Shown: positions 45,429 to 52,366 of the stretch, piece after piece
Position numbering within the stretch: position 1 is the first letter of the stretch
Layout: each line of letters starts with the position of its first letter
From: Terracidiphilus sp.
GTDB lineage: Bacteria; Acidobacteriota; Terriglobia; Terriglobales; Acidobacteriaceae
Direction of reading: 5' to 3'
Length of the DNA stretch: 64,000 nucleotides
NCBI GenBank assembly: GCA_049513195.1
Contig: JBEKWJ010000028.1
Coordinates: 31,600-95,599 of the forward strand
Translations under genes and position numbers: made by a program
Notes under the pieces: model-generated
Told to the model about the DNA's origin: nothing
What the model saw: the letters and a program-made list of their open reading frames with translations, nothing else
Databases searched by the model: none

Positions 45429-47240
45429 TTACCGTCGACCCTGAATGGTCTTGGGGTTGACGCCTGACTTCTTGGCGGCGCGTTTGGCGGCGATGGCGTG
45501 CATCTCCTTGCCAATGTGAGATTGATTGATACCAATCTGCAAGGCCAGGTTGATCACGTTGCTCGTGCCCCAATAAAGAGCCAGTCCCGACGCGTAGCGC
45601 CACAGCATAAAGCCGAACATGGCTGGCATCATGAAGGCCATCATCCGCCGCTGCGCAGGGTCCATGCCCGGCGAAGGCGTGATGTACTGAGTCAAAAACA
45701 TCGAGATGATAATGAGGATGGGCAAAATGTGAAGCGGGTCCGGCAGGCGGAAGTAAGCAAAGAAGAGCGGCATCTGGATGAGCATCGGCAAACAACTGCC
45801 GTACATGTTGACGCCTTCGGTCTTGTAGAGATCCATCATCTCGGCGTTCATCTCGGCCCGCTTGGGATCGTTCATCTTGAGATGCGCGTAGCGCTGCTTG
45901 AGAGCATCGACCTTGGGCTGGATGCGCATCATCTTCAGCGAAGACTTCAGCATCATGAAGCGCGTGGGCATCATGGCCAGAGTGAAAAGGGTGGTGACCA
46001 GGATGATGGCCCAGCCCCAGTTATTGATGCCGTGCTCAACCAGGTAGCGCAACGCCAGATAGAGCGGCTTGGCAATCACAGTGAGCCAGCCGAACTGGAT
46101 CAGCGGCTCAAGCGATTGGCCGTCGGGCTTGCCGTCGGCGCCGGTAGCGTGGATGGAGGCGAGTACATCCATCGCTTTGGGGCCGGCATAGAGGCGCAGG
46201 CGAGTCGAACCGCTGACGTCACCCATGGCCAGTCCCAGCACGTGGGCCGGCTTCTTTTCGCTGTTAGGATCGCTCAGGTCACTGGGCAGATCGATGGTGT
46301 TGTGCAGCGTCACCAGTGTCGTGCGATCAGGAACGTCCGGCATGAAGGCTGCTACAAAGTAAAGGTCGGTGACCGCAGCATAAGAGTAAGGCAGGTCGAG
46401 CGTGGCGTCGTTGCCCACTTTAGCGACGGCCATTGTGTCTTGCTTGCCGTTGAGCGACCAATCGAATTGCGACAACGCGGAGGTGCGAACCGCAGAGCGG
46501 GTCGTCGAAGAAGGAAGGAATTCCTCCATGTCGCCCAGGCCGGCAGGCCATTGCACCAGTGCCCGCACCGGCACGCCATTCCGCTTGACTTCTGCCTCAA
46601 CCGTGATCACGTAGCTCTGATCAAAGCGGATCGTCTTCACTACATCCAGTCCGCCTGATGCGTAGTGGAAGGTGAGAGCGTCGGTGGCTGGAACTTCCAC
46701 GTGTCCCGTGACCGAGGGCTGCGCGCCGCTTGCCGTCACTTGATAGAGCGCCTGATTAAGTTGCGAGGTGAGCGCCGGCTCGTAGGTAAAGAACGAAAGC
46801 GGAAGCCCGAATTGCGCGGCGATCTGGGGCTGCACCATATCCAGCGGCTTGCCGGCGGTGTCGAAATATTTCTTGAGCACCCACTGCTTGACCTGCGCGC
46901 CGCGATTGGTGAAGACGATCCGATAGTTCTCGTTCTCAACCGTCGTCACAGTTTCAAGCGCAGCCGCGATAGTTGGCGTGGCGCCTGCGGCGGCCTGCGG
47001 CACAGGAGCAACTGGTCCCTGCGGCTGAACCGCGGCCACGGATGGTGGAGCGGCTGGCGGCTGGCTCTGGGTTTGCACGATGGGCGCGGGCGGCGCCTGC
47101 TTGGGCTTGAAGAAAAATTGATAACCAAGAAAAACGACGACCATGAGCATCGTGAAGACCAGCGTCGAGCGCATATCGCCGCCGCTGCCGCTGCCACCAC
47201 TGCCTTGCCCTTGAAGATTGGGATTGCTGATTTCTGCCAA
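45429..47240 (-). CDS. yidC: Membrane protein insertase YidC (appears to lack ~20 aa between TM3 and TM4)
   Basis: TNRGAQV, LYAGPK, NWGWAIILVT, KMMRIQPK, GSCLPMLIQMPLF, PDPLHILP, SGLALYWGTSN. Confidence 0.95.
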   Translation of the reverse strand: MAEISNPNLQGQGSGGSGSGGDMRSTLVFTMLMVVVFLGYQFFFKPKQAPPAPIVQTQSQPPAAPPSVAAVQPQGPVAPVPQAAAGATPTIAAALETVTTVENENYRIVFTNRGAQVKQWVLKKYFDTAGKPLDMVQPQIAAQFGLPLSFFTYEPALTSQLNQALYQVTASGAQPSVTGHVEVPATDALTFHYASGGLDVVKTIRFDQSYVITVEAEVKRNGVPVRALVQWPAGLGDMEEFLPSSTTRSAVRTSALSQFDWSLNGKQDTMAVAKVGNDATLDLPYSYAAVTDLYFVAAFMPDVPDRTTLVTLHNTIDLPSDLSDPNSEKKPAHVLGLAMGDVSGSTRLRLYAGPKAMDVLASIHATGADGKPDGQSLEPLIQFGWLTVIAKPLYLALRYLVEHGINNWGWAIILVTTLFTLAMMPTRFMMLKSSLKMMRIQPKVDALKQRYAHLKMNDPKRAEMNAEMMDLYKTEGVNMYGSCLPMLIQMPLFFAYFRLPDPLHILPILIIISMFLTQYITPSPGMDPAQRRMMAFMMPAMFGFMLWRYASGLALYWGTSNVINLALQIGINQSHIGKEMHAIAAKRAAKKSGVNPKTIQGRR

Positions 47241-47290
47241 AGTAGACTTCCTATTCGTTTGAGGAGCGCGTCGTTAGATTGCCGCTCTTC

Positions 47291-47554
47291 CTATGGTAAT
47301 GGTTGGTGGGGAAAATGGCGTGAAATTGCGACCGGGGGCACAGGATCAAGGCCGCCGCGGGTAAAAGGATGACAGCGTAAAAGCCTCCAGAAAGCCAGCA
47401 AAACGCCGCGCAAAGGGCCGTGAGTCGCGATGGCGATCGAGGCATACTCCGAGCAACTGGGAAGAAATTTGCAGCCGCCCGGGCTCAGCGAATGCAGCGC
47501 CGGAGAGATCCAGCGGCGATAAAAAGCGAGCGTGGCAAGCAGGATGCGTGTCAT
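47291..47554 (-). CDS. yidD: Membrane protein insertion efficiency factor YidD
   Basis: [35 protein letters not shown]. Confidence 0.95.
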
Positions 47555-47666
47555 AAAGTCTGTCGAAAACTGCCGCAAATCTCCAATAAAACTGCGGCGC
47601 TGAAAGATGCGAGCCGTTGCCCTCATTCAAGCCCAGGTCCAAATCGTCAGGCTATGGGGCGGCTTA

Positions 47667-48113
47667 TTACGCCGCGGGCAGCGGCCGCGCGGAAGACTGC
47701 TCCATGCGCGCCGCCTCAACCTTTGCCTGCTGAAGAATACGCACAATCTCTGCTTCAAGTTTCAAAAAATCCAGCGTAAGCACCGTGCGCCGCGGATGAA
47801 GAATCAAATCGCACCCGCGCGGCAAAAGCTCGACATGGCGGCGCAGAGCCTCTCTCATGCGGCGCTTGATGCGGTTCCGTTCATGAGCCTTGCCCATTAC
47901 CTTGCCGGCGGTAAGGCCGACGCGCGGACTAGTCGGCAACTCTGCGCCATCATAAGCAGGCTGTTGCGGCGCCAGAAACCAGCTCATCGAAGCGGACTGA
48001 CGCTTGCGGCTAGCCGCATAGGCACGCTGATAATCGGCATGTTTGCACAGGCGCGCGCCGGTCAGCGATTGCCGGGGAATCTGGCCTTCGACAAAGTTGG
48101 GAGGGGTGGTCAT
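47667..48113 (-). CDS. rnpA: Ribonuclease P protein component
   Basis: RVGLTAGKVMGKAHERNRIKRRMRE (RNR motif). Confidence 0.95.
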   Translation of the reverse strand: MTTPPNFVEGQIPRQSLTGARLCKHADYQRAYAASRKRQSASMSWFLAPQQPAYDGAELPTSPRVGLTAGKVMGKAHERNRIKRRMREALRRHVELLPRGCDLILHPRRTVLTLDFLKLEAEIVRILQQAKVEAARMEQSSARPLPAA

Positions 48114-48227
48114 GGCGACCCTGCTCAATGTGTTGGCCGGAAGCGCATGAAAATGCCATCCATTCCGGCTCCAAAATTGGCTTGGGCAGTTGGCGAGCGT
48201 AGAAAAGTGCAGAACGGCAAGCGACAA

Positions 48228-48383
48228 CTAGTCGCGGAATCCGGCGCTGACGGCCACGCGTTTGCGGCCAATGGCACGGCGCCGGCTGAGGACGGCTGCG
48301 CCGGCCTTGGTCTTCATGCGCGCGCGAAAACCGTGTGTCTTTACACGTTTGCGGCGGTTGGGTTGAAATGTGCGCTTGGGCAT
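48228..48383 (-). CDS. rpmH: 50S ribosomal protein L34
   Basis: [23 protein letters not shown]. Confidence 0.97.
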
Positions 48384-48923
48384 GAAAGTGCGCTCCTGTT
48401 TCCTGATGAAAATCTTCGCCTTGACGGCAAGTACTAAGTGTACCGCAGGTTGGCCCAGGAATCCAGCGGTAACTCCGCGGTGAGCCATTTTGATCCACTG
48501 CAACTGAGCTTGTTCAACTTCATCTCGTGATTCTTGAGTGTTGCATCAAACCCCTAAACGACCACGATTGGCGTGGCTTTTAGTGATCTCTCGTTAACAC
48601 TCTAGTAATCTTACCAAACAGTTTCACCAGCAATGGTGCAACTGATCGAGGCAACCAGAAAGTTCTGTGAAACAGTGATTACAACGACTCCCAAATGTGC
48701 TAATCTTGGGACCGTTCAAGAAAGTTTCCCAGCGCCCCAAGGAACCAGTTTCAGACCAGACCCCGAGATCAGTTCCAGGGGTCGAACAGCGGCAATCAAG
48801 CAGTCGGAACCTATGCACAACGACGAAAAGCTCGATGCTTTCCGTCGCCGATAGCTTATTGCCAAAATTCGGGGAATGAACCTGACCTGAAGTCAATAGG
48901 CGGCGCAGGCAAGGATCAGCACG

Positions 48924-50330
48924 ATGGCATTTGCAGTCTCGCCGGCGACGGCACTCAACCCCTGGCTCCAGATCCTCTCTGCTTTAGAGATGAAGGTGAT
49001 TCGTCCCTCATTTGAGACCTGGTTTAAACCCACTCGTTATAGCCATATCGCCAGCCGCACGCTGTATGTCCGCGTGCCCTCGGCGGAGTTTCAGCACCTT
49101 GGGGACCGCTATGGAGACCTGATTCAGGAAGCCATCGAGCAGCAGGAGCTGGAACTGGACGACGTCTGTTTTGTGACCGTCGAGGAAGACCCCTCGATCC
49201 CGCCGCAACGCAAGGATGGCGGCTTTGCGCCGGTGCCTGCCCACGCGCCCACCGCGCCGCCGCAAATGCCCTCGCGTACTCCCGAGCAGGCGCGCTTTGA
49301 TTGGTCAACCGCTGCGCAGCTCAACCCCCGCTACACCTTCGACGCGTTCGTCATCGGCAACGGCAACCAGTTTGCCCGCGCCGCATCCCTCGCCGTCGCT
49401 GAGCGGCCTTCCAAGGCTTACAATCCCCTCTTCCTCTATGGCGGCGTCGGCATGGGCAAGACCCACCTGATGCATGCCATCGGCCACGAGGTGAAGCGCC
49501 GCCAGCCAACCACCAACATCTGCTACGTCTCTGCGGAAAAATTCACCAACGAAATGATCACATCGCTGCGCAACGATCGCATGACCAGCTTCCGCGACCG
49601 CTTCCGCACCGTGGATGTGCTCCTGGTGGACGACATCCAGTTCATCGCTCAGAAAGAGCGCACCCAGGAGGAGTTCTTTCATACCTTCAACGCGCTGCAC
49701 GAGAGCATGAAACAGATCGTGATTGCCTCGGACCGTCCGCCCAAAGAGCTGGCGGAGATTGAGGACCGTCTGCGTTCGCGCTTCGAATGGGGCTTGATCG
49801 CCGACATTCAGCCGCCCGATCTGGAAACCAAAGTCGCCATCCTGCAAAAGAAGGCCGAAAACGAGCAGGTGCAGTTGCCGACGGATGTCGCGCTCTTTGT
49901 GGCCTCAAACGTGCGCACCAACGTGCGTGAGTTGGAAGGTGCTCTGGTGCGTCTCATCGCCTGGTGCCAGCTCAACCGCCTCGAGATCACGCTGCCGTCC
50001 ACGCAGCAGTGCCTCAAGCAGTTCATTGACATGCAGGTGCGCAAAATTACCATCGAGGCCATTCAGCGCGCCGTCAGCGAGAATTTCGGCATGAGGGTCT
50101 CTGACCTGAAGCAGAAAAACAATTCGCGCAATGTGGTGGTGCCGCGCCAGATCGCCATGTACCTGGCCAAGCAGATGACTGAAGCCAGCCTGCCAGAGAT
50201 TGGCCGCCAGTTCGGCAACAAGCACCACACCACGGTGATGCATTCAATCTCCAAAATCGACGAACTGCGCCGCGCCGACAAAGACCTCCACCGCACCCTC
50301 AACAAGCTACAAGAGCAATTGAACGCCTAG
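48924..50330 (+). CDS. dnaA: Chromosomal replication initiator DnaA
   Basis: YTFDAFVIG, YNPLFLYGGVGMGKTHL, LLVDDIQF, NVRELEGAL, RQIAMYL, HHTTVMHS. Confidence 0.98.
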   Translation: MAFAVSPATALNPWLQILSALEMKVIRPSFETWFKPTRYSHIASRTLYVRVPSAEFQHLGDRYGDLIQEAIEQQELELDDVCFVTVEEDPSIPPQRKDGGFAPVPAHAPTAPPQMPSRTPEQARFDWSTAAQLNPRYTFDAFVIGNGNQFARAASLAVAERPSKAYNPLFLYGGVGMGKTHLMHAIGHEVKRRQPTTNICYVSAEKFTNEMITSLRNDRMTSFRDRFRTVDVLLVDDIQFIAQKERTQEEFFHTFNALHESMKQIVIASDRPPKELAEIEDRLRSRFEWGLIADIQPPDLETKVAILQKKAENEQVQLPTDVALFVASNVRTNVRELEGALVRLIAWCQLNRLEITLPSTQQCLKQFIDMQVRKITIEAIQRAVSENFGMRVSDLKQKNNSRNVVVPRQIAMYLAKQMTEASLPEIGRQFGNKHHTTVMHSISKIDELRRADKDLHRTLNKLQEQLNA

Positions 50331-50397
50331 CCACCTGCGGTGCGGCCAACCGCCTTCGGCTGCCCCGCAGCGGTTGGCCCGCTCCGCTCATCAGTCC

Positions 50398-50656
50398 CGA
50401 AGAATCACCATGATCCATGAGAACTGTGGATGAAAAGCTGTGTCCCGTTCATCGCGGCCTTATCGCGATGAGCGGGCGTGTGGCCAGAGGTCAGATCGCG
50501 GCCCGACTATGATTGCGGCAATTGGTGCGTTCATCCGTTTCGAAGAATCACCATGAGGTATGAGAACTGTGGATGAAGAGCTGTGCCCCGTTCATCGCGG
50601 CCTTATCGCGATGAGCGGGCGTGTGGCTTGAGGCCAGATCATAGCCGGACTATGAT
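50398..50656 (+). repeat. Two ~116-bp direct repeats (period 143 bp), each containing a REP hairpin
   Basis: Units 50398-50513 and 50541-50656; hairpins CCCGTTCATCGCG-N7-CGCGATGAGCGGG at 50444-50476 and 50587-50619. Confidence 0.9.
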
Positions 50657-50662
50657 AGCCCC

Positions 50663-51178
50663 ATGCCGTACGATCTGAAACGGTTCCAGAAAGCAGAAGC
50701 TCTCCACTTCGTCACTTTCAGTTGCTTTCACCGTCTCCCGCTTCTCGATGCGCCGGACCCCAAGAACACAGTTGAGGCCGTACTTGAACTGACTCGCGCA
50801 CGACATCAGGCGAGGGTCTACGCCTACGTTCTGATGCCTGAGCACGTCCATTTGCTCATCAACGAGCCACCATCGATTCTCGTCGCTCAGTTTCTCAAAG
50901 CAGTCAAGCAGATCACTTCGCGCAAACTGAAAGGTCAACGCGAGAAGTTTTGGGAGCAACGTTACTATGACAGCAACGTCCATGGTGCAGAGGCTCGCTC
51001 CGAGGTGATCCGCTACATCCATCGGAATCCCGTGAAACGCGGATTGGTACCATCTCCCGGCGACTACCAGTGGAGCAGTTTCAACCACTACGCAACCGGA
51101 GTTCGAGGAGCGGTTGAAATCGAATCGGAGTGGACGGCGAGACTTCGCGGCCCACTCATCGCGGCCTTATCGCGATGA
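50663..51178 (+). CDS. REP-associated tyrosine transposase (RAYT, Y1/HUH)
   Basis: HFVTFSC, YVLMPEHVHLL (HUH), FWEQRYYD, YIHRNPVKRGLV, YQWSS; flanked by palindromes. Confidence 0.92.
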   Translation: MPYDLKRFQKAEALHFVTFSCFHRLPLLDAPDPKNTVEAVLELTRARHQARVYAYVLMPEHVHLLINEPPSILVAQFLKAVKQITSRKLKGQREKFWEQRYYDSNVHGAEARSEVIRYIHRNPVKRGLVPSPGDYQWSSFNHYATGVRGAVEIESEWTARLRGPLIAALSR

Positions 51179-51329
51179 GCGGGCGGTTGGGCAGGTGGCC
51201 CGCTCATCAGTCCCAATGAATCCCCATGAGTCTTGAAAAGCTGTGCCCCGTTCATCGCGGCTTTATCGCGATGAGCGGGAGGGCAGCGGCGGGCTGCCCC
51301 ATCCTTCGCGCACTCTGCAAAGGGTGAGG
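51151..51329 (+). repeat. REP hairpin copies downstream of RAYT
   Basis: Hairpins at 51151-51183 (overlapping the RAYT stop) and 51247-51279; variant GCTGCCCCATCCTTCGCG...GCAAAGGGTGAGG at 51291-51329. Confidence 0.85.
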
Positions 51330-51629
51330 TACCCCACGCGAGCAACAAGCGAGCCACTGGCCCCACCGCAGGTGGTTGCAGATAATTTCCCTCCCGGTGT
51401 GCACAATGGAAGAATGAAAGATGGCCAGAGCGGCGTGCTTTTACTGACCACCGACCACTGTCTTTAGGCTGACCCCACCCCCCCCTACACCTCCGGGGAC
51501 GGGTTTTCGGCTCATTGATCACTCGTAACCAGCATTAAATCAACCACTTGTAATTATTTCCTTGAACGAATAGGAACCTCAAAATCGTGTTTTTTGACCC
51601 ATTTTTAGCCCTAAAAGGCTTCGCTTTTG

Positions 51630-51658
51630 GCGAAAAAGGTCGCTTTTTCGCGCTTTTT
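51630..51658. terminator. A/T-flanked hairpin downstream of the jag-like gene
   Basis: GCGAAAAAG-GTCG-CTTTTTCGC followed by GCTTTTT. Confidence 0.45.
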
Positions 51659-51760
51659 GAAAGACAGAGGAAGCTGGCGCAGATCCCTCGCTTTTGGGGA
51701 TTTGGGATACCACGAACCACTGGCGAGCGAATGCCGAGCGTTTGGCCCCAAAGCAGGTGG

Positions 51761-52366
51761 CTAGCGCCGTGAGCGTCCGCGATCTCCGCGATCACGCCCG
51801 CGATCACCTTGGCTTCGCCCGCGGTCCCCAAAGCTTCTCGGCTTCACGGGTGCGGCGACTGGCAAGTCCGTTTTGCCTGCCGGAAAAACAGCGAGAAATC
51901 GTTCCTGTCCTTCGCCATTGCTGGCCGTCTCCACGCCTTCAATGCCGCGGAACGCCATGTGCAGCAGACGGCGCTCTCGGCTATTCATCGCCGGGAAGGC
52001 ATACGGAATGCCGGAGCGGATCACTTTTTCCGCAGCGGTCTCGGCCGTCAGGCGCAGCTCCTGGGCGCGCAAAGCCTTGAAGTTGCCCGCGTCGAAGCTG
52101 ACCAGGTCGCCCTCGCGCTGGTCGAGGCGAAGAATCTGCGCGGAGATGGTCTCCAGAGCCAGCAGCAGTTCGCCGTTATGCTGCGTAACCAGCGGCACGT
52201 CTGGTCCGCCCAGTTCAATGCACAGGGCAGGGGCGTGCTCTTCGGCGTCAGGCACGCTGTCGCCGGCACTGATGCGGTACTTGAGGCGCAGACCACCTAG
52301 CTTGTTCAGGGTGGCGAGGAATCCGGCAATCTTCTGGGCGGCTTGTTGCAGATCATCGATAGGCAT
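51761..52366 (-). CDS. jag: Jag/EloR (KhpB)-like KH + R3H RNA-binding protein lacking Jag_N
   Basis: KH-like segment GPDVPLVTQHNGELLLALE, DAGNFKALR, R3H motif MNSRERRLLH, SNGEGQERFLAV. Confidence 0.8.
   Translation of the reverse strand: MPIDDLQQAAQKIAGFLATLNKLGGLRLKYRISAGDSVPDAEEHAPALCIELGGPDVPLVTQHNGELLLALETISAQILRLDQREGDLVSFDAGNFKALRAQELRLTAETAAEKVIRSGIPYAFPAMNSRERRLLHMAFRGIEGVETASNGEGQERFLAVFPAGKTDLPVAAPVKPRSFGDRGRSQGDRGRDRGDRGRSRR

Follow-up and report, generated by a model that had tools for sequence, protein, structure and literature searches.

A probable REPtron in the variable spacer between dnaA and a jag-like gene of Terracidiphilus

The closest described counterpart of the locus reported here is the REPtron of Escherichia coli K-12, in which TnpA_REP (RayT, YafM; PDB 4ER8), a Y1 HUH enzyme of 165 aa, is encoded between cognate repetitive extragenic palindromes (REPs) lying in inverted orientation around its gene, and in which an imperfect stem and a 5' motif serve as recognition determinants (PMC8266576). 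In the present study, we analyzed a stretch of 64,000 nt (hereafter the window, to whose positions coordinates refer) from a 5.0-Mb, 119-contig metagenome-assembled genome (MAG; G000) of a peat-bog Terracidiphilus, a member of the family Acidobacteriaceae. The spacer downstream of dnaA in this window contains a gene for a REP-associated tyrosine transposase (RAYT) surrounded by REP hairpins, and we consider it highly probable that the locus is a REPtron, namely, a class-2 RAYT with its cognate REP hairpins, which resides in a variable spacer between dnaA and a jag-like gene. It shares with the E. coli system the Y1 HUH type of enzyme (171 aa), the Y-x3-N-P motif, cognate hairpins inverted around the gene, an imperfect stem with a conserved mismatch, a conserved 5' motif, and two REP subtypes, which are distinguished here by G-C and A-T at stem pair 4-30. 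The two systems differ in that the proteins are ~18-25% identical, the 5' foot is CTGTGC and not GTAG, REPs number in the tens and not hundreds, the C terminus and the stop codon are encoded within the 3' REP, and the Terracidiphilus module is found in many genomic contexts across the genus.

The REPIN-RAYT systems of Pseudomonas (groups 2 and 3; PMC5581495) resemble the present one in the occurrence of several RAYT paralogues per genome (four here) with different palindromes and in the co-variation of the REP sequence with the RAYT clade, whereas the unit described here is ~95 nt in length and comprises one hairpin plus a half-arm of 10-12 nt instead of two full inverted REPs, and its inheritance does not appear to be strictly vertical at one locus. 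Regarding acidobacteria, Y1 relatives have already been reported in Terriglobus, Koribacter, Acidobacterium, and Granulicella, as have ~600 atypical hairpins in Solibacter (PMC3733652; PMC6006769). TIRYTs (subclass 2.1) are proteins of ~238 aa with a C-terminal helix-turn-helix and long flanking terminal inverted repeats and are not accompanied by REPs (PMC3733652; PMC6006769), while class-3 TnpA_Y1 proteins carry a Y-x4-Q motif and are associated with CnGA-footed hairpins (PMC6006769). Unlike these two groups, the protein described here is short, has the Y-x3-N-P motif, and is accompanied by true stem-loop REPs. The earlier acidobacterial Y1 relatives had been described as TIRYTs or class-3 proteins, and the present locus extends well-supported REP/RAYT pairs to Acidobacteriaceae. 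The catalytic fold, the logic of a single-strand hairpin plus guide, and a compact, IS200-like module size are shared with the insertion sequences (ISs) of the IS200/IS605 family (IS608 and ISDra2), from which the locus differs in a profile score below the IS200 cut-off, in N in place of Q after the catalytic Tyr, in inverted copies of one palindrome as ends, and in a palindrome that is also dispersed on its own; it does not qualify as an IS200/IS605 element by these features. The locus is an ordinary member of a known element type.

The RAYT open reading frame (ORF; 50663-51178, + strand) is intact, as the original prediction of a HUH/Y1 RAYT at this site had stated, and encodes 171 aa with the HUH motif H61-V62-H63 and the Tyr motif Y118-IHR-N122-P123. 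The protein scored 100.1 bits against NF047646, the NCBI equivalog model of REP-associated tyrosine transposases (cut-off, 80), and only 44 bits against the IS200/IS605 model NF033573 (cut-off, 55), such that the profile comparison proposed with the prediction favored a RAYT over an IS200/IS605 TnpA. The best match by sequence among solved structures in the PDB was E. coli TnpA_REP (4ER8). An AlphaFold (AF2) model built with 34 relatives as input had a pLDDT of 86, and its top fold match was again 4ER8 (chain A; E 1e-9, TMq 0.69, 155 columns), with the transposases of IS608 and ISDra2 reaching a TMq of ~0.5. H61, W97, Y118, N122, and P123 were invariant in the 34 relatives, and H63 was retained in at least 90% of them; N after the catalytic Tyr is the signature of class 2 (RAYT), whereas IS200 TnpA has Q at this position (PMC6006769). 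Judging from the profile scores and the sequence and predicted-fold matches to 4ER8, the protein is classified as a RAYT that groups apart from IS200 TnpA, and its motifs point to a 2.2-like subclass. The median dN/dS was 0.11 among 27 full-length orthologues (348 pairs), and, therefore, the protein is maintained by purifying selection. Three more RAYT paralogues with 44-52% identity are present in the source genome (C15:38762-39238, C45:25655-26149, and C12:73786-74274), and different palindromes lie near two of them, e.g., CCTTCGCT-N7-AGCGAAGG at the C15 copy and TCATCCAC-N9-GTGGATGA at the C12 copy. Several paralogues per genome, each with its own flanking palindromes, are usual in REP/RAYT systems (PMC6006769).

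The REP is a palindrome of 33 nt, CCC(G/A)(T/C)TCATCGCG-N7-CGCGATGAGCGGG, and the four near-identical copies that had been placed around the RAYT gene were all found (50444-50476, 50587-50619, 51151-51183, and 51247-51279). The predicted single-stranded fold of each has a stem of 13 bp and a loop of 7 nt, with an energy of -13 to -15 kcal/mol (z ~-3). GTG(C/T), previously noted 5' of the stem in three of the four copies, is indeed present and belongs to a longer conserved foot: of 126 unique REP copies from ~50 genomes, 112 have CTGTGC immediately 5' of the stem. In this set of 126, 78 copies have G-C at stem pair 4-30, 42 have A-T, and just six are intermediate, which indicates compensatory change, and 122 have a T.G mismatch at stem pair 5-29. 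Since this T.G would be a non-pairing C.A on the opposite strand, one strand of the element is marked. In E. coli terms, the T.G mismatch and the CTGTGC foot may be the counterparts of the known recognition determinants, and the fixed mismatch and the foot represent candidate determinants that are testable.

The palindrome is also found elsewhere, as the original prediction required of a REP system, both across the source genome and in the genus. The source genome contains 17 palindromes within six mismatches of the 33-mer (13 outside the locus and four in the window), and ~25-30 copies of the ~95-nt REP unit were detected by BLAST; the complete element at 51188-51283 alone matches ~20 places at 76-85% over 90-100 nt. 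Only one of the 17 palindromes lies in an open frame of at least 200 codons, in contrast to 83% of random positions, showing that the REPs are extragenic. A unit of ~90 nt is similarly dispersed in the genomes of relatives, and the REP pattern was found in 76 of 121 congeneric genomes, whereas a reversed control pattern gave no matches. Within the dispersed unit, a head, GGCAGGTGGCCCGCTCATC, which contains the half-arm, sits 30-76 nt 5' of the hairpin in 110 of 142 units. Half-arms (CCGCTCATC) are found at 50384 and 51200 in the locus, and those had been read as producing REPIN-like doublets; each hairpin is preceded by a half-arm of 10-12 nt, GGCCCGCTCATC, with no second full inverted REP, and, thus, the dispersed unit is not a REPIN. 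Comparison of the half-arm base with hairpin pair 4-30 showed a match in 79 units and a conflict in 24, a bias that could stem from subfamily ancestry as much as from pairing. Foot-plus-hairpin sequences (50579-50621 and 51238-51279) recur in metatranscriptome contigs from peat, wetland, and permafrost with many different flanks and a high summed depth, showing that transcription of the REP family is common there. REP units also form tandem arrays in the source genome, with five units at a period of ~165 nt at C99:1-720 and three at C10:70783-71165.

The link between the gene and the palindrome is positional as well as genomic. In ~40 orthologous loci (at least 79% identity), the gene is preceded by a direct REP, 65-80 nt from the ATG, and accompanied by an inverted REP at +488; the latter was seen in ~35 orthologues, in which it encodes the last nine residues of the protein and the TGA stop (...GPLIAIGPR*). 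This REP was not found within 3 kb in any of ~24 paralogous loci (59% identity or less), and it is mostly absent from a subclade at 73-81% identity with a different C terminus. Among the 121 congeneric genomes, the median number of REP pattern matches was 9 in those with a RAYT orthologue and 1 in those without (Mann-Whitney p = 2.6e-8, a value that overstates independence because the genomes are mutually related and many are incomplete). The REP family co-occurs and co-varies with the RAYT clade. The conserved module thus defined has a length of ~590 bp and consists of a REP (CTGTGC foot, 13-bp stem, 7-nt loop), a 43-nt leader, the RAYT gene, and an inverted REP. Taken together, an acidobacterial RAYT/REP system with a foot ending in GTGC, as originally proposed, is borne out, with Terracidiphilus as the host and CTGTGC as the full foot. 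RAYT-coding contigs of relatives were seen in two metatranscriptomes, while no metatranscriptome contig represented a contiguous transcript of the dnaA-RAYT locus, the matches being limited to REP hairpins and to a few fragments of relatives' RAYTs.

The features of the locus are as follows.

48924..50330, + strand: dnaA, with its TAG stop at 50328-50330; Pfam Bac_DnaA, Bac_DnaA_C, and DnaA_N; orthologues in congeners are 86-94% identical.
50331..50369, + strand: native 3' flank of dnaA, made up of a short-form family-B repeat (CCACCTGCGGTGCGGCCA and a small hairpin, CTTCGG), outside the RAYT cassette.
50370..50516, + strand: distal REP unit, with a half-arm at 50379-50395, foot CTGTGT at 50438-50443, hairpin at 50444-50476, and a copy of the leader between REP and ATG.
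50520..50662, + strand: proximal REP unit, with a degenerate half-arm at 50527-50535, foot CTGTGC at 50581-50586, and hairpin at 50587-50619; the 5' end of the conserved RAYT module.
50628-50656, + strand: promoter-like TTGAGG-17-TATGAT from a promoter scan, within the proximal REP unit.
50663..51178, + strand: RAYT (TnpA_REP) gene, 171 aa; NF047646, Pfam Y1_Tnp, and 4ER8 match; its last nine codons and TGA lie inside the 3' REP.
51151..51183, + strand: chimeric 3' REP, with the left arm (CCCACTCATCGCG) of the inverted REP seen in orthologues and a direct-REP loop and right arm.
51188..51283, + strand: complete REP element of ~95 nt, with head GGCAGGTGGCCCGCTCATC, foot CTGTGC at 51241-51246, and hairpin at 51247-51279.
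51286..51375, + strand: repeat family B, long form (...GCGAGCAACAAGCGAGCCACTGGCCCCACCGCAGGTGG), with homologues on contigs C56, C12, C1, C41, and others; outside the RAYT system.
51376..51650, + strand: repeat family C, with head TTGCAGATAATT...GCACAAT; unrelated filler of the dnaA-jag spacer.
51704..51763, - strand: long-form copy of repeat family B, directly next to the stop of the jag-like gene.
51761..52366, - strand: jag-like gene with an R3H domain (Pfam R3H), convergent with dnaA.

The spacer between dnaA and the jag-like gene (50331-51760) is accordingly a pile-up of, in order, family B, two REP units, the RAYT gene, the chimeric REP, a further REP unit, family B, family C, and family B, with REP material spanning ~50370 to 51283 and setting in ~40 nt past the dnaA stop. 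Similarity to orthologous loci runs from ~50520 (5' edge, ~50520-50579) to 51163, and this copy departs from its orthologues on both sides of the gene. Upstream, a 132-nt direct repeat (50385-50516 and 50528-50659) is 87% identical, and orthologues carry one upstream REP unit where this locus has two; the REP unit has been duplicated in tandem together with its 43-nt leader. At the 3' end, only the left arm (CCCAC...) of the REP at 51151 is of the inverted type; its loop and right arm are of the direct type, the loop being the reverse complement of that in orthologues, and the DNA 3' of it is a REP-type flank. Such a chimera would be expected if an inverted REP and a direct REP downstream of it had recombined via their left arms. 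The protein tail is consequently ...GPLIAALSR* instead of ...GPLIAIGPR*, with the position of the stop unchanged, and the 3' hairpin of one relative (L059) is also the site of a break, but a different one. The distance from the promoter-like TTGAGG-17-TATGAT to the ATG is 7 nt. Its hexamers are retained in orthologues; it represents a consensus match only, and a leaderless RAYT mRNA is conceivable. Excision variants, i.e., joints that skip the cassette, were not found in four DNA metagenome runs. The arrangement itself is not an artefact of assembly because Logan contigs from metagenome runs of three different studies tile the path from dnaA through both upstream REPs and the RAYT gene to jag (50213-50473, 50455-50616, and 50598-52100), free of mismatches and at even depth; mis-assembly of the cassette-dnaA junction across short repeats, for which the 119-contig MAG, the breaks of contigs C76 and C99 at REPs, and a left border at a repeated motif might speak, is hardly credible in view of these junction-spanning contigs.

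By analogy with E. coli TnpA_REP, the enzyme would bind the folded hairpin on single-stranded DNA and read its 5' foot, and cleavage and rejoining at the foot would proceed via Y118 with a metal held by H61, H63, and N122. In this manner, the RAYT may spread and rearrange the ~95-nt REP elements in trans. In the present copy, the 5' unit has undergone tandem duplication, and the inverted 3' REP has recombined with a downstream direct REP, flipping the loop and deleting the intervening DNA. The analysis establishes the family to which the protein belongs, the dispersal of the REPs and their association with it across genomes, the purifying selection on it, and the occurrence of the module in many contexts, and binding and cleavage of the REP as well as any benefit to the host are inferences.

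Several observations weigh against the interpretation of the locus as a REPtron. REP copy numbers are low (~25 per genome and at most ~45 in the genus), and REPs of Pseudomonas or E. coli number in the hundreds. The contigs C76 (at C76:39) and C99 break at REPs, and, since contigs begin or end in REPs, the true number is probably above the count from the draft assembly. The co-occurrence of REP and RAYT is imperfect, with eight genomes lacking a detectable orthologue having at least eight pattern matches, and the sample consists of phylogenetically non-independent and often incomplete MAGs. A pair of filled and empty sites for a single REP element was not found when 420-nt flanks of elements on contigs C75, C1, C4, and C72 were compared with 12 relatives; the coding flanks matched, and the intergenic DNA was too diverged or otherwise filled. 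The four bases beside the stem are GTGC and do not conform to the canonical foot, GT[AG]G; GTGC is one base away from a GTGG variant on record, and non-canonical feet have been described for subclass 2.6 and class 3 (PMC6006769). In addition, both blastn and tblastx sorted the flanks of 42 orthologue loci into 29 unrelated contexts, and some genomes carry two or three copies of the module or decayed copies (G009, G087, G080, G104, and fen_408). Typical RAYTs are single-copy and vertically inherited (PMC5581495), and a domesticated RAYT in the sense of Bertels et al. (2017) is expected as one copy at a stable locus, whereas up to three copies per genome in 29 contexts were found here; in this respect, the module looks more IS-like than a typical RAYT.

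This departure from single-copy vertical inheritance keeps the movement of the whole module alive as a rival explanation, in which the ~590-bp REP-RAYT-REP module is an autonomous minimal IS200-like element, and dispersed REPs are its solo ends or miniature derivatives. We assign a modest chance to this explanation. Similarity among orthologous loci stops at the edges of the module, the variety of contexts persists even by tblastx, multiple and decayed copies occur, and only the present copy lies at dnaA, all of which speak for such an element. The protein, however, falls below the cut-off of the IS200 model and above that of the RAYT model, its Tyr motif is Y-x3-N-P and not Y-x3-Q (PMC6006769), and the ends of the module are one palindrome in inverted orientation, whereas those of IS200/IS605 elements are distinct hairpins on one strand. 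Moreover, copies within a genome have diverged (83% vs 92% in G009), and dS among orthologues ranges from 0.3 to 1.7, giving no sign of a recent burst. A related and speculative proposal, which we consider unlikely, is that the Terracidiphilus module is still self-mobile and occupies a position between an IS200-type IS and a domesticated RAYT, with the enzyme rewriting or truncating its own gene when it acts on its own hairpin, because the stop and last nine codons are situated inside the substrate hairpin. If this is the case, cleavage, loop inversion, or recombination at the hairpin would constitute a built-in feedback on transposase activity. With its many contexts and a REP-encoded stop, the genus offers useful natural material for studying whether whole RAYT modules are mobile.

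A second rival, according to which the palindromes are regulatory or terminator hairpins of the host that happen to flank a Y1 transposase gene whose product is inactive on them, is very unlikely. It would fit the abundance of REP hairpins with many flanks in metatranscriptome contigs, the position of REPs after genes, and the promoter-like site adjoining the upstream REP; nevertheless, it leaves unexplained why ~40 orthologues have the hairpins at set distances on either side of the gene, while none of ~24 paralogues has them, and why REP and RAYT co-occur genome-wide. Conservation of the 5' foot and of the T.G mismatch, which is strand-asymmetric, also follows the pattern of known RAYT substrates (PMC8266576), and no T-tract follows the stems.

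Returning to the REPtron reading, the borders of the cassette and its relation to dnaA require revision. The cassette had been described as starting at the base after the dnaA TAG and as fused to this stop, with coordinates set by an 18-nt inverted repeat (50331-50348 and 51358-51375). A motif of the type CCACCTGCGG(T/G)G(G/C)GGCC..., followed by a small hairpin, also comes after the dnaA stop in two relatives (G009 and G014) that both lack a RAYT there, and similarity to these relatives ends at 50368-50369. The first ~38 nt after the stop are therefore native DNA, since they are present in cassette-free relatives, and separate dnaA from the cassette. The idea that this 18-nt repeat forms the ends of the cassette, as terminal inverted repeats, was rejected because its two arms are family-B copies, of which the left one is part of the native flank. 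The comparison of the dnaA 3' flank proposed with the prediction found relatives without the cassette at this site (G009, G014, G003, and G012) and contradicted the left boundary claimed.

In G003 and G012, a convergent jag-like R3H gene follows ~150 nt past dnaA with a plain terminator hairpin between; in G014, jag lies 1.7 kb from dnaA with two unrelated genes between, and the neighborhood in G009 differs again. The jag-like gene is the ancestral right neighbor of dnaA. The genes rpmH-rnpA-yidD-yidC (45429-48503, - strand) are located upstream of dnaA, and the jag-like gene is on its far side; a jag-like gene usually follows yidC. The suggestion that the cassette sits where dnaN or oriC normally lies did not hold: congeners have a convergent jag at this position, dnaN is on another contig (C30), and no cluster of DnaA boxes (TTATCCACA, at most one mismatch) flanks dnaA, the only near-matches being two copies of TGTGGATGA. 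These match eight of the nine bases of a DnaA box and are located at 50425-50433 and 50568-50576, one per tandem REP unit. Since orthologues have extra CTGTAC foot repeats at this spot (GAAGCTGTAC), they are degenerate copies of the foot and not DnaA boxes. GC skew over 20 kb showed no switch, and an origin link of the locus was rejected on the grounds of the missing box cluster at dnaA and the absence of a switch. None of 79 related RAYT loci had dnaA within 3 kb, and, therefore, the site beside dnaA is not a preferred one; the position of the RAYT there is a lineage-specific accident. The locus has no bearing on the biology of replication origins, and the dnaA neighborhood is best described as a variable spacer with at least three families of short repeats. 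Outside the window but on its contig, 71 kb away from dnaA, C28:9443-9537 contains three near-perfect DnaA boxes (CGTGGATAA twice and TGTGGATAA) within 95 nt. This is the one tight cluster on the contig; no tighter one was found in the assembly, and the site is a possible candidate for oriC.

Besides REPs, the two other families of the spacer, B and C, are dispersed in the source genome, and neither was matched in Rfam, which returned nothing relevant at E <= 1 over 50200-51800 and four other repeat loci. Family B (TGGCCCCACCGCAGGTGG) has 67 copies at three or fewer mismatches, and its 10-mer core occurs 66 times against ~10 expected by our own arithmetic. It consists of CCACCTGCGGTGGGGCCA followed by either a small GC hairpin with a TTCG-type loop or GCTCGCT..CGCTCGC..GGTTCGTGG, and directly abuts the stop of 16 ORFs of at least 90 codons, including dnaA and the jag-like gene. 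Its copies in the window are at 50331-50348, 51358-51375, and 51744-51761, and after dnaA it stands in place of the ordinary terminator hairpin found there in most congeners. Family C has ~87 copies with a head of the form TTGCAGAWAATT...GCGCACAAT (e.g., C3:24315, C6:105540, and C28:12278) and extends for ~300-400 nt through TTGCAGAWAATTACC..GGCGCACAATCAAAG, short repeats of the CTGTTCC type, a run of CCCCCCACCCCCCC, and a second TTGCAGATAATTA. It is often joined straight to a copy of family B, as it is 3' of the right-hand B in the window, and its head looks promoter-like.

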